DNA of 60,463 nt from a virus. Its lineage: Duplodnaviria > Caudoviricetes. Below the pieces are notes generated by a model. That model ran no database searches. It was not told the origin of the DNA and saw nothing but the letters and a program-made list of their open reading frames with translations. Position 1 is the first letter of the stretch, and each line of letters starts with the position of its first letter. The stretch covers positions 1 through 60,463 of IMG/VR virus record IMGVR_UViG_3300030450_002177; one strand, given 5' to 3'. The translations under genes were made by a program, and so were the position numbers. Positions 9,104 to 41,430 of the stretch are shown here, piece by piece.

Positions 9104-9613
9104 ATGGCAAGACCAAAGAAAGAAAGACCTAAGCTAATCGATGCTCCTGCTCAATTTGAGAAGGACGAAGAGTTTGGTTTGACAGAGATGCAGACAGCTT
9201 TCGTGTGGTATTACACAGAAGGGTCGTGTAGTCAGACTGAAGCAGCTAGACGAGCTGGTTACGAATACCCAGCAGTAGCAGCTAACAAGATGCTAAACGG
9301 TAAAGACTTTCCTAGCGTTACCAAAGCCATACGAGTCAAGCAAGATGAGTTAGCTGAGAAGTATGCGATAACTCCAGCCAAGACTGGTACGATGTTGTGG
9401 AAGATCACCGAGACTGCATACGAGAGTGGACAGCTCAACGCAGCTGTGTCAGCCATTAAAGAGCTCAATCAATTAGCTGGTTTAAACATCAGTAGATCGC
9501 AAAGCGTTAACATAAATGCGAACTTAGATACGATGAGTAAGGACGACATCAAGGAGAGATTGTCCAAGCTATTAGGCGCAGATGTGGAGACTTATTCCGA
9601 TAAAGATATGTAG
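9104..9613 (+). CDS. terS: terminase small subunit
   Basis: LTxxQxxFV..Y....SQTEAARRAGY HTH; AAVSAIKELxxLxG. Confidence 0.8.
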   Translation: MARPKKERPKLIDAPAQFEKDEEFGLTEMQTAFVWYYTEGSCSQTEAARRAGYEYPAVAANKMLNGKDFPSVTKAIRVKQDELAEKYAITPAKTGTMLWKITETAYESGQLNAAVSAIKELNQLAGLNISRSQSVNINANLDTMSKDDIKERLSKLLGADVETYSDKDM

Positions 9614-22119: not shown

Positions 22120-24030
22120 ATGGCTAAACTACCAACAGGTTATCCTATAACAACTGGTGCCTTTTTGCTTGGGGATCAAGGTTCTAGGGTTGAACCATAT
22201 TATGATTTTGTCAGAGACATAACTGGTGACAGGCGCTCAACAGATGATGAAGATATTTTTGCTCCAGATAGAGATTTATTGGATAAAGTTGTTGAATCAT
22301 ACGAAGAAAACATACCCCTGCCAGACAAAATATTAGCTGGATTCACAATACCGGGCATTGGTATGGATTTAGCAGCAGCTGGAAAGTACGGCAGAGAAGG
22401 CGTTAGAGATATAAAATCTGGATTACAAAGCTTAGGTAGTGGTTTTAGTATGCACAAAGCCCCTAGTCAATTAAAGTCTGGTGTGAAAAATTTAGGCATA
22501 GCCACACTAGCTGGCGTAGGAGCAATACCAGTTGTTGGCGATATAGTGAAGCGAGCAGGCACACCTCTAATAAAAGGCTTGCAAGAATCTTCCGAAATAG
22601 TACCAATATTATCAATAATCAAGAAGTCTGATAATGTAAACCCGAAAAGAGTAAAACAAGCAAAAGATTTATTAGAAGCCTCATCAAATAATTTTGTATA
22701 CAAAGGCGTAGAGCAACAAAGAAGACAGCCCATAGAGGTTTTAGATAATGGTGATGGCACTTTTACTCAACTGGGTGGCTCTTCTACATTACAAGCCTTA
22801 GAAGAATCTGGCGCAACCCATATTCCCATAAAGCGCTTTCCAACCCGAGAGGCTTATCTCGAAAATGAGCCTATCAGAAAAGCTGCAAAAGAAAATAAAA
22901 GAGCAGAAGATGCGAAAACACTACAACCTAAAGTAAACGATCCAACATTTGAAGGACCTGTAAGAGAATTTGGCTCTAAAATGGAAAAAGAGTTTGATAA
23001 GACTTTTAATTTACACCAAGAGGGTCTTAAAACTGTAGATGATTTGTTTGAAACGGCACAAAGAGCCAACTCTCAATTCCAGAAAGAAATAAAAGAAATT
23101 GCTGATGGCTTTAATTTAAAAAGCACCTCAGCCCCCGGCGAACCTATTACTGATCCTACCGTTTTCAAATTTCTTGACAAAATTGATGGTCTTGCTGTTG
23201 ACATAAGAACAGGTCATTATCCCGGCACCGTTAAGCTGCCCAGTAGCATCCTTAGAAAGTCTAAAGCTAAATACAACGGCGATCCTTCACAAATAACTGA
23301 TAGCATGAGAACCAGAATTATAGCTGAAACCCCTGAAGAAGCTGATGCACTAGCCAAAGCAATATCATCTAAATGGGCAGCTAAAGATTCAGGCAATCAA
23401 ATAAACATGTTTGGTTACATAGATCGCAAACTTAATATTCAATACATTGATGATGCTGGAAATAAGATAATAGCAGAAATAAGCATAGTGCCTAGAGCTA
23501 TGGATGATGCAGCTCAAAAAGCACATCCACTATATGAAGCTTACCGTGGACAAATAGCCCTTTATGGCACTTCTGATGTAGATTTATTCCCTTACGCAGC
23601 ACAACAAAGAGCAAAAGTATTGCTTGAGAGACAAAATCAAATTTTTGGCGAAGCTAAACAACATATTCATCCAAGCTGGCTAGGAGAAGACCTTGTTCAA
23701 AAATTTGCTTACGGAGGTGCTGTTTATGCCAATCGAGGCAGCTCAGGAAGTGTGTCACCTATGACACCAAACTTCTTTTCAAACTCTGATTTATCAATGT
23801 TAGCTCCATCAATGGTGATGTCTGCGTATTGTTCACCTGAAGCAACTCGCCAAGAGTCTTCATCTAAAGGCAAAAAGAAAGCTGCTGATACATTGGCTTC
23901 TTCGGAACCAGCTATGACTGCTGGCAAACTTTCCCAAGAAAAATATAAGATTTCTAATTCCATGTCAGACAGTATAACAAAAAGATTCGTAGATTCACCA
24001 ACTGAAGGGGGTCGCAAGGAAATTTTATGA
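22120..24030 (+). CDS. polymorphic-toxin-like protein: pre-toxin TG-like region, ParB/Srx-like domain, RelA/SpoT-type synthetase domain, FAYGG motif
   Basis: IPGIG/AIPVVGD; RQPIEV..NGDGTF..LGG; VKxxxSIxRK, ITDxxRxRII, GYxDxK, AEIxI, HxLYE. Confidence 0.7.
   Translation: MAKLPTGYPITTGAFLLGDQGSRVEPYYDFVRDITGDRRSTDDEDIFAPDRDLLDKVVESYEENIPLPDKILAGFTIPGIGMDLAAAGKYGREGVRDIKSGLQSLGSGFSMHKAPSQLKSGVKNLGIATLAGVGAIPVVGDIVKRAGTPLIKGLQESSEIVPILSIIKKSDNVNPKRVKQAKDLLEASSNNFVYKGVEQQRRQPIEVLDNGDGTFTQLGGSSTLQALEESGATHIPIKRFPTREAYLENEPIRKAAKENKRAEDAKTLQPKVNDPTFEGPVREFGSKMEKEFDKTFNLHQEGLKTVDDLFETAQRANSQFQKEIKEIADGFNLKSTSAPGEPITDPTVFKFLDKIDGLAVDIRTGHYPGTVKLPSSILRKSKAKYNGDPSQITDSMRTRIIAETPEEADALAKAISSKWAAKDSGNQINMFGYIDRKLNIQYIDDAGNKIIAEISIVPRAMDDAAQKAHPLYEAYRGQIALYGTSDVDLFPYAAQQRAKVLLERQNQIFGEAKQHIHPSWLGEDLVQKFAYGGAVYANRGSSGSVSPMTPNFFSNSDLSMLAPSMVMSAYCSPEATRQESSSKGKKKAADTLASSEPAMTAGKLSQEKYKISNSMSDSITKRFVDSPTEGGRKEIL
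23724..23963 (-). CDS. nested antisense gene, candidate immunity/antitoxin (79 aa)
   Basis: globular acidic sequence; TGnTATACT extended -10 located 7 nt before ATG; overlapping plus-strand segment is Ser/Met-rich. Confidence 0.6.
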   Translation of the reverse strand: MELEILYFSWESLPAVIAGSEEANVSAAFFLPLDEDSWRVASGEQYADITIDGANIDKSEFEKKFGVIGDTLPELPRLA

Positions 24031-28950: not shown

Positions 28951-29133
28951 ATGAGTTGGCTACCAAAAACGTATAAAGACACCATTAAAAAATTCTGGCA
29001 AAACGTCAGGGGTGTTGAAGAAAAAACAGTTAGAGCTAGAACAAAAAAAGGAAGGTATGTAGCTGATGATCCATCTACTCCTGATGTAGATGAAGCTTAT
29101 ACTACAGTAGAAGTCAAAAAGAAAAAAAAGTGA
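28951..29133 (+). CDS. small basic protein (RARxxKGxYxADDPSTPDVxEA)
   Basis: AGGAG SD; start revised. Confidence 0.65.
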   Translation: MSWLPKTYKDTIKKFWQNVRGVEEKTVRARTKKGRYVADDPSTPDVDEAYTTVEVKKKKK

Positions 29134-29312
29134 CTGTCAAAGACGCTTTACATAGAATCGAAACACATGAAAGAGAGTGTAAAATACGTTATGAGCATAT
29201 TGAAAAGCGTCTGGAAGAAGGTAGTGAAAAATTTAAGCGAATCGAAGTTATGTTGTGGGGGTTATATGGAGTCATAGCTATGTCTATGGGACTTTCTCAG
29301 TATTTGAATTAA
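29130..29312 (+). CDS. coiled-coil + C-terminal TM protein (XhlA/holin-like)
   Basis: HExxCxxRY...C-terminal TM. Confidence 0.6.
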   Translation: MTVKDALHRIETHERECKIRYEHIEKRLEEGSEKFKRIEVMLWGLYGVIAMSMGLSQYLN

Positions 29313-29336
29313 AAAAATATAGATAGTGACAGGAGG

Positions 29337-29738
29337 TTGCGAATGAGTGACGACAGAGCTAGTGGTAGATTTGGTGGTGATATGGACCGAAATGAGGTCG
29401 AAATTGACTTGTCCAAATTTATGGAATTGTTGCAAGAACAATCAGCATTAAAAGATCGTATTAGAGAATTAGAAGACGAGACCAACAGAAACCCTCATCA
29501 AAAATGGATTCATTTAGCACAAGCAGTTGATTCTTGGAGAATATTTCCAAGAGCCTTTTTAACTGTGTACATCTTTTTACTTTACTATACTGTCATGTGG
29601 TTTATGGAATTGCCTGAACCAAGTTTTGAGCAATCTGGTTTGATTTCTATAGTTGTTGGTGCTGGAGCTGCGTGGTTTGGATTATATGCAGGAACCACAG
29701 GTTCATCTAAGAGCTTCAAAGGAGAAAAGGATAAATAA
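29337..29738 (+). CDS. putative holin (coiled coil + 2 TM)
   Basis: DxWRIFPR + two TM helices; lysis cassette; possible dual start at 29337/29343. Confidence 0.55.
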   Translation: MRMSDDRASGRFGGDMDRNEVEIDLSKFMELLQEQSALKDRIRELEDETNRNPHQKWIHLAQAVDSWRIFPRAFLTVYIFLLYYTVMWFMELPEPSFEQSGLISIVVGAGAAWFGLYAGTTGSSKSFKGEKDK

Positions 29739-30850: not shown

Positions 30851-33152
30851 AAAAGATAAAGGTCTTATTTGGTGTTTTTCTGCAAGTTTAATTTTATCAG
30901 CGATTTTTTCATTAGGCGTTAATAGCCTTAAAGCTGAATATATTTATGAAGCCAATCAACCTTTATATCATTTACAAACAAACGCTAATAATTTTGAAGG
31001 AGAATTAGCTTATTCAATTTCTGACGATGGCGTTTCTCCTGTTGTAGATTTATCTTTTAATTTTACTTTCTATGGAGAAACTTTTAGCCAAGCCAGAATA
31101 GCAACTAATGGTTGTTTGCATTTTAAAACCACAGGTTCATACTGTAATGACTACACACCAGACCCATTAACAGGACAGCACACCTATACACTATATCCCT
31201 TTTGGACGGACTTAATTAGAGATAACAACTCAAGAATAAAATCTTGGGGAGATTCTTCTAAGATGATATTTGGTTGGTATGATTTAAGAGAATACAACAG
31301 AAGCAATACAGACAATAGTTTTGAGGTAATACTTTGGTCAAATAATACGTTTGAATACAGATATGGCGCTTTAAACGTAATTAACCATGACGTATTAATT
31401 GGTGAAATAGGTAGTGGGACCTCAGAAAGCTATACTTATTTGTACCATGATGAATGTAGCACAGGCACAACCAATTCTAGTTCATGTGTAAACACTAATT
31501 GGAATAACACTTCATTTAATACATTGTTAGAAAATGGTGGTTCTTTATATGGAGTAGGAACAGGCAATTCTATAGACTGTAGCGACCCTTTGAACGATGA
31601 ATCTTGTTCAGGGTATGCAGCAGCTTATCTAACTCAACAATGTAATCTGGATTCGCTGTATAGTCAGTCCTGTCCTTACTATTGGGAGGCTTATGATGAC
31701 CAACAGTGTGACGAAGACCCACAATACGCACCTTTTTGTGCTGGTTATACCCAAGAAGCATCAGTAGCTTATTTTGTAGAAGATAACTTTGATTATGGTT
31801 ATCAGGATGATATGCAGGGTGGAAACTTTAGTTTTGATGATAACTTTGGGTATGAAGAAGATGTTTTTTCTTACATAGAAGGGTTTGATTTTGAACAAAA
31901 TGAAGAAGTATTAGTTTTTGAATATGAAGATGTTTTTATTGAATTTGATTTTGAAGAAACTTTTGCTGGAGACTTTGATCCATTACCAGATTTTAACGTA
32001 ATAAATGATGTTTATGAAATCCAATTATTTGAAGAGCCTGAGTTTCTGTTATCTTATGATGAACTTGAAAGAAACGATGTAATTACAATTAACCCAAGTG
32101 AAGAATTAATAGAAGAATTTATATTACAAGAAACTGTTTTAGTAGAGGATTTTGAACAAATTAATACCTTTATAGATTTTGAAACTATAGAAGAACTTGA
32201 TGAATGGTTTGAAGAAGAAATTAGAGAAGAAATAGCAGAAGAAAGAACAGAAGAAGAGGCTGAAGAAGAACTTTATGCTGAAGAAGAAGTTTTTGAAGAA
32301 GAGGTAGTAGAAGAAGTATTTGAAGATATAGAAGAACAGTTTGTAGAAGAAAGAGTTGCTATAGAAGAAAGAGAAGAAGAGGTAATTGAAGAAGAATTAG
32401 AGTTAGTTGCAGAAGAAACAACATCAAGAAGTGGAATAACATCAACCATGTTAAATGTTGTAAACCAATCTATAAGGACAGCAACTAATAGCAATTCTTC
32501 TAGTGGTTCTTCTAGTGGTTATTCAAGTGGAAGTAATAGTGGTGGAAATGTAAACAGTAGTGCTGTTAATTCTTCTGTAACAGGTGGTGGAATTAGTACA
32601 AGCAGCTCACCAAGCATGTCTGACCAAATAGTTTCAGCAAATGTTCAAACAAATACGATTCTTTCTTTAAGCCAAGATACTAGCAGCATGTCTGGTGGCA
32701 GCTCACAAACAGTTAGTAATGTATCTACAGTTATAACACCTATGCCAACATTTGATACTAACCCACAAGTAGTTATGGCAGATGTTCAGGTACAAAATAT
32801 GCAAGGTGAAATAGACACAGCAGTATCAGGAGTTATGACAGCAAGCGAAGCAGATCAAATTGCAGATGAAATTATTGCTAATAACATTAAAGAGCAACAA
32901 GAACAGGCAGAAACAGAACAAGCAGAAACTGGACAATACGCAGACCAATCAACATTAGTGGCTTATTTGGGCTATGTTCAGGGCTTTGATGCGTACAGAG
33001 AAGTCAACATACCTCAAGCAGACGCTTGGTATGAAGATAAAACTATTTATGATAATATTGGTATTAGTGACAATATAAATGCTTTTTATACCCTTGCTAG
33101 TGACAATATAAATATGATAAATAAGATAATAGGACAACAACCAAATTTGTAG
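30840..33152 (+). CDS. secreted protein with NIDO-like domain, Cys repeats and Glu-rich region
   Basis: signal peptide; DDG.S....L.F.F.FYG...TNG, PFWTDL; CxxDPxxxxxCxGY repeats. Confidence 0.7.
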   Translation: MPHRKDKGLIWCFSASLILSAIFSLGVNSLKAEYIYEANQPLYHLQTNANNFEGELAYSISDDGVSPVVDLSFNFTFYGETFSQARIATNGCLHFKTTGSYCNDYTPDPLTGQHTYTLYPFWTDLIRDNNSRIKSWGDSSKMIFGWYDLREYNRSNTDNSFEVILWSNNTFEYRYGALNVINHDVLIGEIGSGTSESYTYLYHDECSTGTTNSSSCVNTNWNNTSFNTLLENGGSLYGVGTGNSIDCSDPLNDESCSGYAAAYLTQQCNLDSLYSQSCPYYWEAYDDQQCDEDPQYAPFCAGYTQEASVAYFVEDNFDYGYQDDMQGGNFSFDDNFGYEEDVFSYIEGFDFEQNEEVLVFEYEDVFIEFDFEETFAGDFDPLPDFNVINDVYEIQLFEEPEFLLSYDELERNDVITINPSEELIEEFILQETVLVEDFEQINTFIDFETIEELDEWFEEEIREEIAEERTEEEAEEELYAEEEVFEEEVVEEVFEDIEEQFVEERVAIEEREEEVIEEELELVAEETTSRSGITSTMLNVVNQSIRTATNSNSSSGSSSGYSSGSNSGGNVNSSAVNSSVTGGGISTSSSPSMSDQIVSANVQTNTILSLSQDTSSMSGGSSQTVSNVSTVITPMPTFDTNPQVVMADVQVQNMQGEIDTAVSGVMTASEADQIADEIIANNIKEQQEQAETEQAETGQYADQSTLVAYLGYVQGFDAYREVNIPQADAWYEDKTIYDNIGISDNINAFYTLASDNINMINKIIGQQPNL

Positions 33153-33161
33153 GAGAATGAT

Positions 33162-33506
33162 ATGGATTGGTTTCAAAATAAAACAACTCAATTAATAGCT
33201 TTAGTATCGATTGTAGGTACTTTGGCTGGTTTTGGTTATACAGGAGCTACTTACGTTAATCGTTTAGAAAATCTTGAAGCTAAAATAGGTGGTTTAGGTG
33301 AGACAGAAGATGCTCAACAGGCTATAGAAGAACGTTTTGCTAGTATAGAAACTCAAGTTCAATATTTAGAAAAAGAAATAAATAGTATAGAAATACCTGA
33401 TAATAGCGATACTCAAGCATCTGTAGCTGCTTTAACAAGTGATGTAGAAAGAATCTGGATTGAATTAGATAAGTTAGAAGACAGTAAAAATCCTTTAGCT
33501 AATTAA
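33162..33506 (+). CDS. TM + coiled-coil protein
   Basis: N-terminal TM, heptads, terminal NPLAN. Confidence 0.7.
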   Translation: MDWFQNKTTQLIALVSIVGTLAGFGYTGATYVNRLENLEAKIGGLGETEDAQQAIEERFASIETQVQYLEKEINSIEIPDNSDTQASVAALTSDVERIWIELDKLEDSKNPLAN

Positions 33507-33508
33507 TT

Positions 33509-33910
33509 ATGAAAATAGGTCTAATAATGGGTGGTTTATTATTAGCCACAATCGCTGGTTCAGCTTATTGGATAGACAGATTACAAGACAATATTGGCAC
33601 ATTAAAAGGCAATCAAATAATTCTTGAAACTAAAATACAAGAACAAAACGAAGCTATTGAAAATCATCTTAATAAACAGAAACAAACACAAAATCAATTA
33701 ATTGCTTTAGAAAAAGAAAAGCAAGAAGCAATGCGTGATGTAAATAAATTAAGAAAAACATTTGCTTCACATGATTTGGATGAACTAACACTAGAAAAAC
33801 CAGAGCTTATGGAAGGCAAAATTAACAGAGCTTCAAAACGAGTTTTAGAAAAATTAGAAGAATTAACAGACCCAAACCAATTTGATGAAAAAGATAGCAA
33901 TAATAGTTAG
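33509..33910 (+). CDS. putative i-spanin (Rz-like)
   Basis: N-terminal TM + long coiled coil; overlaps lipoprotein gene. Confidence 0.65.
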   Translation: MKIGLIMGGLLLATIAGSAYWIDRLQDNIGTLKGNQIILETKIQEQNEAIENHLNKQKQTQNQLIALEKEKQEAMRDVNKLRKTFASHDLDELTLEKPELMEGKINRASKRVLEKLEELTDPNQFDEKDSNNS

Positions 33911-34256
33911 TTTTATACTAATAGCATCTGGTTGTTCCTTGATACCAGCTAAAGCCAAGCCTGTTTCAGTGACTACAATAGCTGAAAGACCCCCTATGTA
34001 TCATCCACCACTGCCAATGGAAGTACAAATGGACCCTGTTGAATGGGAAATAATGACTCCAGAAAGAATGGAAGAATATCTAACTAATCTTGAAAAGGGC
34101 GAAGCACCAAGAAGGGCTTATTACACTTTATCTAGCAAAGAATACGAACATTTAAGCATGGATATGGCAGACATTACTAGGTACATAAAAGAAATATTAG
34201 GTATTGTTAAATTTTACAGAGATTATGATAATGACGAAGAAAAAAAAGATGAGTAA
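33882..34256 (+). CDS. putative o-spanin lipoprotein (Rz1-like)
   Basis: lipobox ASG-C, Pro-rich segment. Confidence 0.65.
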   Translation: MMKKIAIIVSFILIASGCSLIPAKAKPVSVTTIAERPPMYHPPLPMEVQMDPVEWEIMTPERMEEYLTNLEKGEAPRRAYYTLSSKEYEHLSMDMADITRYIKEILGIVKFYRDYDNDEEKKDE

Positions 34257-34626
34257 TTCACCAGACGAGTTTGTTTATAGAGCAACGCTGGATAGAATTA
34301 TAGACGGAGATACTTTTGACTGCGTTTTAGACCTAGGTTTTGATGTAAAATTACACAAACAAAGGGTAAGGTTAGCTGGCATCGACACTCCAGAAAGCCG
34401 TACTAGAAATTTAGCTGAAAAAGCTCTTGGACTAAAGGCAAAAGAAAGACTTAAAGAACTTTGTGTAGGTACGTTCAAGGTTAAATCACTTGGTAAAGGT
34501 AAATATGGCAGGATTCTTGGTATACCTTATACAGAAGATGGAGAGGATATTTGTCAAAAACTTATATCTGAAGGACATGCTGTTAAGTATGAAGGTGGCA
34601 CTAAAACAAAAATATGGGGAAAATAA
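34249..34626 (+). CDS. thermonuclease (SNase family)
   Basis: IIDGDT, RVRLAGIDTPE, GKYGRIL; start revised. Confidence 0.9.
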   Translation: MSNSPDEFVYRATLDRIIDGDTFDCVLDLGFDVKLHKQRVRLAGIDTPESRTRNLAEKALGLKAKERLKELCVGTFKVKSLGKGKYGRILGIPYTEDGEDICQKLISEGHAVKYEGGTKTKIWGK

Positions 34627-34627
34627 A

Positions 34628-35071
34628 ATGGAAATATCGCAGGAAGGACTGGCACTAATTAAATATTTTGAAGGTTGTGAGCTTGAGGCATACAAATGTC
34701 CAGCTGGTGTGTGGACTATAGGTTACGGACACACAAAAGATGTCAAAGAAGGTGACAGAATTAATAAAGATGAAGCAAATCATTTGTTAGAAGAAGAAAT
34801 GATAGAGTATGAAAGTTATGTAAATGACATGGTTGAAGTTGACCTTAATCAAAGTCAATTCGACTCTTTGTGTGCATGGATTTATAATTTAGGACCAACA
34901 AATTTTGCTAATTCAACGCTCCGAAAAGTCTTAAATGAAGGAAAATATGATGAAGTTCCACAACAAATCAAAAGATGGAATAAAGCTGGTGGTGAAGTAT
35001 TGACTGGTTTAATAAGACGTAGAGAAGCAGAAGCATTACTTTTTCAAGGTAAAGAATGGCATGAGGTATAA
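34628..35071 (+). CDS. endolysin, GH24 lysozyme
   Basis: FEG..L.AY.CPAGVWTIGYGHT, GLxRRRxAE; start revised. Confidence 0.92.
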   Translation: MEISQEGLALIKYFEGCELEAYKCPAGVWTIGYGHTKDVKEGDRINKDEANHLLEEEMIEYESYVNDMVEVDLNQSQFDSLCAWIYNLGPTNFANSTLRKVLNEGKYDEVPQQIKRWNKAGGEVLTGLIRRREAEALLFQGKEWHEV

Positions 35072-35098
35072 ATCAATGAAATGCCTTATACTTAGCTT

Positions 35099-35166
35099 AT
35101 GTGCTACTCCATTAGCACTAGGGCTAGGTAGTACCAATGTATGTCACTATCAAGCTACCTAGCCTG
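35099..35166 (+). ncRNA. two-hairpin RNA / terL leader, candidate antisense regulator
   Basis: TATACT -10 at 35087; hairpins GTGCTA/TAGCAC (loop CTCCAT) and GGCTAGGTAG/CTACCTAGCC. Confidence 0.55.
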
Positions 35167-35177
35167 CTTTTAAAGGT

Positions 35178-36665
35178 ATGAAAAACGTATCTATAAAAGA
35201 TTTTGATATTTTGTCTGAGCAAGACAAAACAGAGGCTATAGCCCTATTAAACCGTTATGAGCAAATAGATAAGCAGTCTAATTGTCATGTAGATTTCTTG
35301 TCTTTTGTTAAACACATGTGGGGCGACACTTTTATTGAAGGTCGTCATCATAAGATTATCGCTGATAAATTCAATCGTATAGCACAAGGCAAACTAAAAA
35401 GACTAATTGTTTGCTTACCCCCTAGACACTCTAAATCAGAATTTGCTTCAACCTTCTTTCCAGCTTGGATGATGGGCTTAAACGGTTCTTTAAAGATAAT
35501 ACAATGTACACACACAGCCGAACTAGCTGTCAGGTTCGGTAGAAAAGTAAGAAACCTTATTGATAGTGAAGATTTTAAGTTTATTTTTCCTAATTTAAAA
35601 TTACAAGCAGACAATAAAAGTGCTGGTAGGTGGACAACAAACGAAGAAGGTGAGTCTTTCTACGCTGGTGTAGGTGGAGCTATTACGGGTCGTGGTGCTG
35701 ATTTATTGATTATTGACGATCCTCATTCTGAGCAGGACGCTCTTTCTCCTAAAGCATTAGAATCAGCTTATGAGTGGTATACATCAGGTCCTAGGCAGAG
35801 GTTACAGCCGGGAGGCACCATAGTCATAGTAATGACTCGTTGGAGCACGAAAGATTTGGTTGGTAAAGTATTGAAGAAGCAGGGTGAAGAGAACGCAGAC
35901 CAATGGGAAGTGATTGAGTTTCCAGCAATTATGCCAGAAACAGACAAACCATTGTGGGGCGAGTTTTGGAAAAAAGAAGAATTACTTAGCGTTAAAGCAT
36001 CACTTCCAGTAGCTAAATGGAACTCACAATGGATGCAAGACCCTACAGCTGAAGAAGGTTCAATCGTAAAAAGAGAATGGTGGAGAAAGTGGGCTGGAGA
36101 AAATGTGCCAGAATATGATTATGTTATACAAAGTTATGATACTGCGTTTTCTAAGAAAGATACTGCTGACTATTCTGCAATAACAACTTGGGCTATTTTT
36201 ATAGATGAAGAGAACGACATGCCCAATATAATCCTATTAGACGCAAAAAGGGTTAGGGTGGACTTTCCTGAGCTAAAACGATTAGCTTTTGATGAGTACA
36301 AGTATTGGGAGCCAGACTGTGTATTAATAGAAGCTAAAGCATCAGGAACGCCTCTTACACAGGAATTAAGGCGTATGGGAATACCAGTAACTGCTTATTC
36401 CCCAAGCAGAGGACAAGACAAAATTGCCAGAATGAATAGTGTTGCGCCAATCTTTGAATCTGGAATGGTTTGGATGCCAGAAGAAACTTTTGCAGAAGAA
36501 GTGGTTGAAGAGATGGCTAGTTTCCCTTATGGTGATAACGATGACTATTGCGATAGTGCCACGATGGCTTTAATGCGTTTTAGACAGGGTGGTTTTTTGT
36601 CATTAAAAGAAGACTATCAAGATGAGGTAAAATTACTAAAAAGAGACAGGACGGTTTATTATTAA
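35178..36665 (+). CDS. terL: terminase large subunit
   Basis: PPRHSKS Walker A, LLIIDD Walker B, SYDTA / IEAKASG / DDYCD nuclease motifs. Confidence 0.95.
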   Translation: MKNVSIKDFDILSEQDKTEAIALLNRYEQIDKQSNCHVDFLSFVKHMWGDTFIEGRHHKIIADKFNRIAQGKLKRLIVCLPPRHSKSEFASTFFPAWMMGLNGSLKIIQCTHTAELAVRFGRKVRNLIDSEDFKFIFPNLKLQADNKSAGRWTTNEEGESFYAGVGGAITGRGADLLIIDDPHSEQDALSPKALESAYEWYTSGPRQRLQPGGTIVIVMTRWSTKDLVGKVLKKQGEENADQWEVIEFPAIMPETDKPLWGEFWKKEELLSVKASLPVAKWNSQWMQDPTAEEGSIVKREWWRKWAGENVPEYDYVIQSYDTAFSKKDTADYSAITTWAIFIDEENDMPNIILLDAKRVRVDFPELKRLAFDEYKYWEPDCVLIEAKASGTPLTQELRRMGIPVTAYSPSRGQDKIARMNSVAPIFESGMVWMPEETFAEEVVEEMASFPYGDNDDYCDSATMALMRFRQGGFLSLKEDYQDEVKLLKRDRTVYY

Positions 36666-36862
36666 TGCGTATTTGGGTAACTTCTTTTGTATGGGATGGC
36701 ATAGAATATGTGGGACCTAGCATTTATGCTAAAACAAAAGAAACTGCATTAGCAGTAGCTGAGTCAGAAGGATTAGTGCTTGAAGGAGAGCTTGTTGGAT
36801 ATGTGCCAATAGAAGATTTGGACGAACCACAAGGGACAACTGATAAAATAATGTTACACTAG
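36665..36862 (+). CDS. hypothetical protein
   Basis: TAATG coupling between terL and portal. Confidence 0.65.
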   Translation: MRIWVTSFVWDGIEYVGPSIYAKTKETALAVAESEGLVLEGELVGYVPIEDLDEPQGTTDKIMLH

Positions 36863-40059: not shown

Positions 40060-40495
40060 GCTTGAAATAGCAAAAAATTCAAAGGATCAGGTCGATTTAT
40101 CTTCTGCGTATGTAAGTCCAGAAGAGGTTGTACTAGACCCTACAAAGTTAGATGCTAGTGCTTTAGATCGTATGCCTCAACCAACAGGTTGGAAAATCTT
40201 AGTGCTCCCTTATCGTGGTAAGGGCGTTACGAAAGGTGGAATTGTCTTAACAAAAGAAGCAGTTGATAAAGAATCGCTGGCGACAGTGGTTGCTTATGTG
40301 GTTAAAAAAGGACCACTTTGTTATGGTGATGAAGCAAAATATGGAGCTCCTTGGTGCGAAGAAAAGCAGTGGGTACTTATTGGAAGGTACGCTGGAGCTA
40401 GGTTTAAATTAGATGACGGGGCAGAAGTTAGAATCATTAATGACGATGAAGTTATAGGTACAATTTCTAATCCAGATGATATAGTGAGTTTATAA
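40052..40495 (+). CDS. groES: co-chaperonin GroES/Cpn10-like
   Basis: PTGWKILV, TKGGI.L, RYAG, RIINDDEV. Confidence 0.85.
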   Translation: MSELEIAKNSKDQVDLSSAYVSPEEVVLDPTKLDASALDRMPQPTGWKILVLPYRGKGVTKGGIVLTKEAVDKESLATVVAYVVKKGPLCYGDEAKYGAPWCEEKQWVLIGRYAGARFKLDDGAEVRIINDDEVIGTISNPDDIVSL

Positions 40496-41430
40496 TGAGT
40501 GAAAATCAAACAGAAATGGCTGAAGAGCAAGAATTAGATATACAGGTAGTCGAAGATGTCGAAAATGTCGAAGAAAAGCCTGCTGAAAGCGAGGTTCAAT
40601 CTGATGACGAATTGGATAAATATACTAAAAGCGTTTCTAAAAGAATTAACAAACTAAATGCGAGAACTAGAGAAGCTGAAGAAAAAGCAGCTATGTTAGA
40701 GCAAAGTTTAGCTCAAAAAGAGCAAGAGGCTGCTCTTTACAAAAATGACTGGCACCAGACTAGGAACCAGCTTATGCAGGCAGAAGAGAGCTCATTAGAA
40801 ATAAAAGAACAACAAGCTGATGAACTTTATAAAAGAGCCGTTGAGTCTGGTGATGCTGAATTGATGTCAAAAGCAGATACGCTTAAAAGTGACCTTTCTA
40901 TACAGAAAGAGAAAATCAGATTAGCAAAAAATAGAAGGGATGCTGAACAGTCACAGGTTACACAACAGCCAGTATATCAGCAACAAGCAGTACAACAAGA
41001 AGTTAAACCCTCAGAGGAAGCCTTAGATTGGGCTAGTAACAATAAATGGTATGGGGATTCTTCTAACGACACGAACAAAGAAGCAACACAGTTTGCTTAT
41101 TTCACACACTTTAATCTCGTTAATGAAGGTTACGAGCCTGATTCTGACGATTATTATAGTGAGCTAAACACAAGAGTTTTTAAAGTTTACCCTGATTTGG
41201 GTACTTCAAAAAAAGCCGAAGAAAATGATGAAAGACCCCCTGTGCAAAGAGTCGCATCAGCTTCCGTAGGAAGTAGGCAAAAAACACAAGGCAAAAATAA
41301 CGGCGTGACTTTTTCAAAGTCTGAGTTAGATCGCCTACGAGGGCTAAAACCTTACAACATGTCTGAAGAAGATTGGTTGAAAAGAGTAGCTAAAGAGAAA
41401 CAAAAAATTTCACAAAGAGAGGCAAGATAA
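40495..41430 (+). CDS. capsid scaffolding protein
   Basis: acidic coiled coil, KRINKL, W...N.W; position before capsid. Confidence 0.7.
   Translation: MSENQTEMAEEQELDIQVVEDVENVEEKPAESEVQSDDELDKYTKSVSKRINKLNARTREAEEKAAMLEQSLAQKEQEAALYKNDWHQTRNQLMQAEESSLEIKEQQADELYKRAVESGDAELMSKADTLKSDLSIQKEKIRLAKNRRDAEQSQVTQQPVYQQQAVQQEVKPSEEALDWASNNKWYGDSSNDTNKEATQFAYFTHFNLVNEGYEPDSDDYYSELNTRVFKVYPDLGTSKKAEENDERPPVQRVASASVGSRQKTQGKNNGVTFSKSELDRLRGLKPYNMSEEDWLKRVAKEKQKISQREAR

Follow-up and report, generated by a model that had tools for sequence, protein, structure and literature searches.

The window analysed here, that is, the whole stretch of 60,463 bp, is a complete virus record (CheckV estimate 100%) without end repeats. 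Its large terminase subunit (TerL) is 56-61% identical to the TerL proteins of 023Pt_psg01, of the Pelagibacter phages HTVC027P and HTVC023P, and of DSL-LC04, which identifies the window as a marine podophage related to the HTVC023P type. A megablast search with positions 34400-36700 found no near-identical GenBank phage, and no tRNAs were found in the window by a tRNA scan. The terL gene stands at the head of a block of co-oriented genes (35178-59603), representing a late operon of approximately 25 kb, and a lysis cassette identified by PHROG and Pfam matches is located directly upstream of the terL leader. The genes around this junction, together with the distant terS homologue, are:

33162-35071, + strand: lysis cassette, directly upstream of the terL leader
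33162-33506: first gene of the spanin-endolysin cassette, encoding a 114-aa protein with a weak 'hemolysin' PHROG match
33509-33910 and 33882-34256: genes for two Rz-like spanins
34204-34626: gene for an SNase-like nuclease (Pfam PF00565, E = 3e-14), between the spanin genes and the endolysin gene
35071: stop of the endolysin gene
35178-36665, + strand: terL, terminase large subunit, 495 aa (PHROG 38, E = 2e-105)
36871: portal gene, after terL
9104-9613: terS homologue, 29% identical to HTVC023P terS over 140 aa

The terS homologue is found 25 kb from terL, within a block of replication genes. Elsewhere in the window, a 636-aa protein (22120-24030) shows a sub-threshold match to a RelA/SpoT domain (PF04607, E = 3.4e-4, 21.3 bits against a cutoff of 27).

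The leader between the endolysin stop and the terL start consists of the following elements:

35087-35177, + strand: whole leader region, holding an element of approximately 87 nt directly upstream of terL
35087-35092, + strand: -10-like box TATACT (family consensus nATAMT), at a fixed spacing to hairpin 1
35096-35122, + strand: hairpin 1, with the upper stem GTGCTA/TAGCAC (35101-35106 / 35113-35118) and the loop CTCCAT (35107-35112)
35096:35122, 35097:35121 and 35099:35119, + strand: lower pairs of hairpin 1
35119-35123, + strand: junction TAGGG between the hairpins (family TAGRG)
35123-35163, + strand: hairpin 2, with the stem 35123-35132 / 35154-35163 and a loop at about 35133-35153
35142-35151, + strand: hairpin 2 loop motif TGTCACTATC, with the family-invariant core TCACTA.C at 35144-35151
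35164-35180, + strand: A/U-rich spacer and the terL ATG (35178)

A TerL search of IMG/VR yielded 80 loci with 84-97% amino acid identity, one of which (L040) is cut by the contig end. These loci carry 43 distinct versions of a 126-nt leader, the window included, and 38 of the versions were aligned; the five left out (L007, L023, L043, L053 and L062) differ only in flanks outside the hairpins. The A, T, A and T of the -10-like hexamer are invariant in all 38 aligned leaders and the spacing from the box to hairpin 1 is gap-free, placing nATAMT as a conserved -10-like element at a fixed distance from a putatively transcribed element, as in sigma-70-type promoters. Candidate -35 elements, judged by eye, agree with TTGACA at 3-4 of 6 positions at best, none of them convincingly, and a consensus promoter scan had no entry at the leader. 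The extended -10 motif has no second copy elsewhere in the window, and AAATGNNTTATAMT, considered as a repeated late-promoter motif, was dismissed since 24 matches were found where 30 are expected.

The region of the leader folds at -33.9 kcal/mol (z = -3.2 relative to shuffles). In hairpin 1, five of the eight modelled pairs show compensatory changes and 97.3% of the alignment cells are paired; the corresponding values for hairpin 2 are nine of ten pairs and 94.5%. The arms of hairpin 2 in the window read GGCTAGGTAG/CTACCTAGCC (35122-35131 / 35155-35164, with the pair 35122:35164 included) and enclose a 23-nt loop. The T, A and G of the TAGRG junction are invariant and the next two Gs almost so; hairpin 1 is closed and hairpin 2 opened by the junction Gs, which leaves no linker between the two helices. 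The hairpin 1 loop CUCCAUUA is kept only in the sub-clade of the window, and the other clades have loops of 3-4 nt. This loop, CUCCAUUA in the window (35107-35114), reads CCUCCAUUA in L287 (L287:1185-1200), and we take both forms to resemble the 3' end of 16S rRNA.

Both hairpins were recovered by RNAalifold from the 38-leader alignment. Standard base pairs occupy 95.7% of 677 cells, compared to 81.3 +/- 0.8 in shuffles, and compensatory changes were found in 14 of the 18 pairs; none of 500 shuffles reached the observed measures, and when the 3' partners were slid by 1-3 columns, only 26-46% of the cells remained paired. The pairing is strand-specific (95.7% on the + strand, 73.3% on the - strand), and 158 G:U cells were found compared to only 6 A:C cells, which indicates that the folded molecule is the terL-sense RNA, or the same strand as single-stranded DNA, and not a duplex site for a protein. 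The stems and the remainder of the loop vary, in contrast to the invariant -10 box, TAGRG and loop core TCACTA.C; within the loop, alignment columns 73-78 and 80 are identical in all 38 leaders and column 79 is C (23 leaders) or T (15 leaders). The presence of two hairpins behind a -10 box at the head of terL, as proposed by the sequence-only reading, was thus borne out by covariation in relatives and assigned to the sense strand, and the pattern of substitutions identifies the two hairpins as a conserved sense-strand RNA structure at the head of terL.

The leader architecture is found immediately upstream of terL in 80 of 80 loci, always on the + strand. A covariance model built from the 38-leader alignment gave a single match in the window (69.4 bits) and exactly one match per locus in the 80 loci. 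Further matches in other loci, including diverged members, were also always located just before terL; among these, L140 and L302 carry the diverged loop GTCGCTACC (variant loop form GUCGCUACC) and L280 carries GTCACTACTATC (variant loop form ACUACUAUC). The model found no match in the four nearest isolates (023Pt_psg01, HTVC027P, DSL-LC04 and HTVC023P), and the clade-B leader pattern, searched for as a clue to prophages or hosts, had 0 matches in the genomes of 185,579 prokaryote species. A related lineage of higher GC content is made up of the 20 loci, out of 44 searched, that had no match to the covariance model. The nine of these 20 loci that were inspected lack the leader, and their terL start is overlapped by the stop of the endolysin gene. 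This overlap reads ATGTCTGA in L306-L325 (e.g., L306:2990-3010). In the higher-GC lineage terL appears to be translationally coupled to the lysis cassette, and the absence of the leader where these genes overlap indicates that the leader is a regulatory module added between co-oriented late genes. The late genes on both sides of the leader are probably co-transcribed.

No part of the window belongs to an Rfam 15 family at the gathering score. A search of 35040-35220 with E values up to 10 gave just two chance-level matches, snoR01 (19.6 bits, threshold 55) and mir-275 (11.5 bits, threshold 56). No published description of such a terL leader RNA was found in a search of articles on phage terminase RNA motifs, and the main text of PMC9599517 makes no mention of promoters, hairpins or holins. 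As judged by comparison of related genomes, the leader represents a well-supported and previously uncatalogued structured RNA family that is confined to one clade of marine HTVC023P-like podophages.

The position of hairpin 2 bears on its possible function. In 36 distinct leaders, 4-13 nt (median 9) separate hairpin 2 from the terL AUG, mostly without a Shine-Dalgarno (SD) sequence, such that the hairpin overlaps the ribosome-binding region of the gene that it would regulate, as translational operators do. An SD-like 4-mer is absent from about 21 of the 47 genes of this phage; the weak SD of terL is therefore not unusual and says little by itself. No consistent pseudoknot pairing of the loop with the terL start region was found by eye. 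Taking these observations together, we give about an even chance to the interpretation of 35087-35177 as a 5' leader that acts in cis on the packaging and structural operon headed by terL, with a loop that docks a trans-acting factor and thereby controls translation of terL and the fate of the late mRNA. Transcription would start at the foot of hairpin 1, at a point set by the fixed-spacing -10-like box, and the leader RNA would fold into the two abutting hairpins evident from covariation, with hairpin 2, 4-13 nt before the terL AUG, sitting on the landing zone of the ribosome. The invariant core UCACUAYC would be presented single-stranded at the 3' side of the hairpin 2 loop and bind a trans-acting factor, which may be a phage or host protein or an RNA. 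Binding of this factor could either stabilize or open hairpin 2 and hence set the level of TerL translation, and the 5' hairpin may also stabilize the late mRNA.

An additional function was suggested for the loop by the sequence-only reading, which proposed that it pairs with the 5' region of a putative holin gene and acts as an RNA timer that links packaging-gene transcription to delayed lysis. Re-reading of the sequence confirmed that all elements of this proposal are in place (TATACT, both hairpins, TGTCACTATC at 35142-35151, and GATAGTGACA at 29322-29331 followed by GGAGG). The features of the holin region in the window are:

29130-29312, + strand: small gene encoding a protein with a single transmembrane segment, upstream of the holin-like gene
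29322-29331, + strand: GATAGTGACA, exact complement of the hairpin 2 loop motif TGTCACTATC, abutting the SD
29332-29336, + strand: GGAGG, SD of the holin-like gene
29343-29738, + strand: holin-like gene, 131 aa, two conserved hydrophobic segments (PHROG 10198, function unknown)

The holin-like protein has no Pfam match and belongs to no named family. In L057, the homologue of its gene directly precedes spanin-like genes and the endolysin gene, about 1.7 kb upstream of terL, and the position of the small upstream gene is occupied there by a gene for a 74-aa protein with a C-terminal hydrophobic segment. Based on the small size and membrane segments of the encoded protein and on the position at the head of the lysis cassette in L057, the gene at 29343-29738 is inferred to be a plausible holin gene. 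The proposed identity of the putative holin is therefore reasonable, given the two hydrophobic segments and the location in L057, but its start, placed at position 29337, had to be moved; the TTG listed there directly follows the SD, whereas an in-frame ATG at 29343, six nt after GGAGG, is the plausible start.

Among 127 start regions in the window, that of the holin-like gene forms the best duplex with the loop (-18.5 kcal/mol predicted). The second-best predicted duplex (-16.6 kcal/mol) involves the start region of the 114-aa gene at 33162 (33127-33176), which would pair with ACCAAU on the 5' side of the loop. The 23-nt loop was shuffled 20000 times to estimate chance matches; 56% of the shuffled loops found a perfect 10-nt complement at any place on the + strand, and for 5.7% such a complement fell within positions -30 to +3 of one of the 127 ATG ORFs. 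Taken by itself, the 10-mer match in this genome is therefore weak evidence. TGTCACTAYC, allowing at most one mismatch, has 10 matches in the window (6.4 +/- 2.3 expected), and three exact copies are present; a role as a repeated regulatory site was rejected, since neither the window nor the records of five relatives contain the motif above background and the extra copies that were checked lie inside coding sequence. In the window, the SD of the holin-like gene is predicted to be mostly paired with an upstream CUUUCUC (unpaired probability 0.02), in a local fold that is not significant (z = -1.3), and no cis partner of the GATAGTGACA motif better than those in shuffles was found. The spacer before the holin-like gene in the window resembles the 5' end of the gene itself and may have arisen by local duplication.

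Homologues of the holin-like gene were looked for in all retrieved loci, and together with the window these provide 19 distinct sequences upstream of the holin-like gene on loci that also have the leader. GATAGTGA was found 15-28 nt before the ATG in seven of these 19 contexts (the window, L050, L052, L053, L057/58, L172 and L173), all of which have the TATC variant of the loop, and TCACTATC is kept in the loop of the positive clade L050/L052/L053/L057/L058/L172/L173. These seven contexts represent two terL clades, one consisting of the window alone and the other with TerL proteins that are 95-100% identical to each other. The site is absent from the other 12 contexts (L055, L117, L149/150, L151, L034/35, L003, L013/10, L009, L069, L030, L140 and L231), in 11 of which the gene begins directly at the end of the upstream gene or overlaps with it; in L030, it is preceded by a short spacer containing an SD. 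TACC-type loops are present in ten of these 12 contexts, and where the loop reads TCACTACC, GGTAGTGA was not found before the holin-like gene in any context, such that the two sites show no compensatory covariation. Absence of the holin-side site from these 12 contexts does not go along with any weaker conservation of the loop core; targeting of the holin can therefore not be what maintains this core. Co-conservation, which had been put forward as the check on the proposed timer, was hence found in part, as the GATAGTGA/TCACTATC pair recurs in one further terL clade, while 12 of 19 contexts lack the site and compensatory covariation is missing.

Where the site is present, the complement to the loop spans 10 nt in the window, 10 nt in L057 (UUGAUAGUGA against UCACUAUCAA) and 8 nt plus one G:U pair in L050 and L053. 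The exposed loop is thus complementary to the initiation region of a possible target, as is characteristic of antisense riboregulators, and the duplex with the holin-like start region ranks first among 127, 33, 29 and 23 start regions in the window, L057, L053 and L050, respectively. By chance, one particular start window would be expected to match over 8 nt or more in roughly 0.7% of cases, a figure that was derived from the shuffled-loop simulation and not simulated directly. Two other possible targets were rejected. GATAGTGA also occurs inside terL (35562-35569, in codons for IDSE), and this copy, present in 15 of 31 distinct GRTAGTGA contexts (the window and 14 others), agrees with codon usage and occurs independently of the loop variant. 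A universal target of the TACC-type loops was considered in a 9-nt complement that many clade-B loci carry in DDIVSL codons at the end of the gene preceding a gene for a protein of approximately 310 aa (window 40470-40497; L055:12144-12193 and homologues); since its register is lost in other clades and only 7 nt remain in the window, it can be explained by coding constraint plus chance.

In L050, L053, L057 and L172, GAUAGUGAU(UU) is predicted to pair over 11-12 bp with codons 5-7 of the holin-like gene (AUUACUAUC, encoding Ile-Thr-Ile), forming a cis hairpin that encloses the SD and AUG of this gene (-8.7 to -15.9 kcal/mol). The sites are:

L050:3748-3800, cis hairpin at the holin-like start
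L053:3889-3940, cis hairpin at the holin-like start
L057:6244-6300, cis hairpin at the holin-like start
L172:1058-1110, cis hairpin at the holin-like start

One compensatory change, U:A in L050 against A:U in L057, was found in this hairpin, which is likely to serve in translational control of the holin. As the motif forms one arm of the cis hairpin, the hairpin alone explains conservation of the motif in the second clade. The coding arm and the leader loop differ by transitions only, so that the shared 5' arm would pair in cis by G:U wobble and with the leader loop by Watson-Crick pairs; at -12.4 to -18.5 kcal/mol, the trans duplexes are predicted to be at least as strong as the cis hairpins. 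In L174:3930-3990 (and also in L175-L187), the holin-like SD GGUGAU is predicted to be paired with an upstream AAUCACC, which represents a different way of sequestering the same initiation region.

These data leave some room for an RNA-RNA switch, acting in trans or over a long range in cis, in which GAUAGUGA(CA), immediately before the holin-like SD, would be bound by the loop of hairpin 2, linking late and packaging transcription to translation of the holin. We consider this switch, with GAUAGUGA and UCACUAUC as its pairing sites, possible but doubtful. In the refined form that applies to the clade of L050 and L057, the leader loop would compete with the coding arm AUUACUAUC and open the initiation region, which amounts to activation and not repression; on the predicted structures, pairing of the loop with the holin mRNA, if real, would most likely have this activating effect. 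By extension, it is conceivable, at the same low level of confidence, that a three-way switch exists in which the terL leader loop invades the hairpin at the holin ribosome-binding site (5' arm GAUAGUGA) and couples packaging-gene transcription to the lysis clock, and holin translation would then start only once late or terL RNA accumulates. Such a switch would account for the perfect 10-nt complement in the window and the top rank of the holin-like start region in four genomes, for the retention of GATAGTGA at 15-28 nt before the ATG in the second clade while the flanks diverge, and for a match to one given start window that has an expectation of only roughly 0.7%; it would also fit the cis hairpin predicted in four relatives with its one compensatory change, the change of the 5' arm from wobble pairing in cis to Watson-Crick pairing in trans, and the strength of the trans duplexes relative to the cis hairpins. 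Against it, the site is missing from 12 of the 19 contexts holding both elements, TCACTACC loops have no GGTAGTGA partner, the seven positive contexts fall into only two terL clades, the second of which has TerL proteins 95-100% identical, and the single-genome match has a p value of about 0.06. In addition, the cis hairpin by itself accounts for conservation of the motif in the second clade, no cis arm was found in the window, and the spacer there may be a local duplication. The delayed-lysis timer of the sequence-only reading is not supported in several respects: the loop core is kept without a holin site, the motif in the second clade has an explanation in cis, and pairing would be more likely to activate the holin than to delay it. 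Pairing with the holin-like mRNA is not needed to explain the leader; conversely, a purely cis-acting leader leaves unexplained that exact complementarity to the holin 5' region recurs, by sequence comparison, in a second clade.

Three further explanations concern the leader itself. The hairpins could act on RNA polymerase, as the HK022 put RNAs do, with the loop contacting the host enzyme and causing antitermination in the late operon of approximately 25 kb. The location right after a -10 box and at the head of the long co-oriented block 35178-59603 would suit this function, and two adjacent covarying hairpins with an invariant loop would fit a conserved host target, but the resemblance to put RNAs is one of description, Rfam gave no match, no terminators that need suppression were identified, and related phages do without the leader, which makes this explanation improbable. 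An element acting as DNA (a site for a DNA-binding protein, a pac or cos site, or a sequence at a module boundary or for recombination) is very unlikely, even though the leader lies at a module junction adjoining terL and two inverted copies of 8-10 bp bracket the holin-to-endolysin genes in every genome with both copies, including the window, L050 and L057. The excess of G:U over A:C cells (158 against 6) points to a folded terL-sense single strand, pac sites usually lie in terS, which here is 25 kb distant (9104-9613), the motif is no more frequent than background in the window or the five relatives' records, and most genomes have the leader copy alone. There is similarly little to be said for an ordinary intrinsic terminator of the lysis-gene transcript, for which we see hardly any chance. 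In the window, TGCTTTT follows hairpin 2, and here and in some relatives a GC-containing 10-bp stem precedes a short T run, but this run is not conserved, with GACUAAG, GAUUAAU or GACCCCC after the stem in many relatives. The loop of 13-23 nt is far above the typical size, a terminator scan had no entry for the site, and hairpin 2 does not combine the GC-rich stem, small loop and conserved U tract of Rho-independent terminators; a terminator would also leave the invariant loop, hairpin 1 and the -10 box unexplained.

The cis-acting leader proposed here shares features with several known systems. The coat-protein operators of MS2 and PP7 and the T4 RegA sites are translational operator hairpins of phages, and, as in the terL leader, their hairpins adjoin a start codon and combine a covarying stem with an invariant recognition sequence that is single-stranded in the loop. 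The terL leader differs from them in that the hairpin does not contain the AUG, the binding protein is putative, a second hairpin and an own -10 box are present, and the phage has a dsDNA genome. The HK022 put antiterminator RNAs, which belong to early operons of lambdoid phages, act in cis as a pair of stem-loops close to the promoter; by description, the terL leader has such a pair as well, at the start of a long late operon.

Other parallels concern the holin-like start. The small RNAs DsrA and RprA open the hairpin of the rpoS leader by an anti-antisense mechanism of activation. In the L050/L057 clade, the initiation region of the holin-like gene is similarly predicted to be enclosed by a hairpin, the 5' arm of which is perfectly complementary to the exposed loop of another RNA, but an mRNA 5' leader would be the activator here instead of a free-standing sRNA, the pairing spans 8-10 nt, and no Hfq-type features were seen. 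The c4 antisense RNA of P1 and P7 acts on the icd-ant ribosome-binding region and, like the terL leader, is a structured RNA encoded by a phage with loops complementary to a target ribosome-binding site at another place of the same genome; c4 differs in having two loop-target pairs that match and in being processed out of the operon of its own target, whereas the terL leader has one conserved match, in a minority of relatives. In the lambda S gene, the sdi stem-loop at the start site sets translation of the holin. A local hairpin over the holin initiation region is likewise predicted in L050, L053, L057 and L172, with a different SD-sequestering hairpin in L174, but the holin-like gene has no dual-start motif, encodes a protein of another family and may have a partner in trans. 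In PAK_P4, the antisense RNA as15, directed against the endolysin gene, has been proposed to delay lysis (PMC5563952). As15 is thus a phage RNA proposed to tune translation of a lysis gene and hence the latent period (PMC5563952), and it is cis-encoded, fully complementary and was seen by RNA-seq (PMC5563952), whereas the match predicted for the terL leader is short and in trans.

In summary of what the leader may mean for these phages, an uncatalogued structured RNA lies where the lysis genes give way to the genes for packaging and structure. Relatives of the HTVC023P-type podophages count among the most abundant viruses of the sea, and to our knowledge almost nothing is known about their gene regulation. 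If pairing between the loop and the holin mRNA were true, it would represent a new way of setting the timing of lysis, and it would give the leader of an mRNA a trans-acting function in a dsDNA phage, within one of the most abundant groups of marine phages. The leader itself represents a concrete handle on the control of late genes in these uncultured marine phages.
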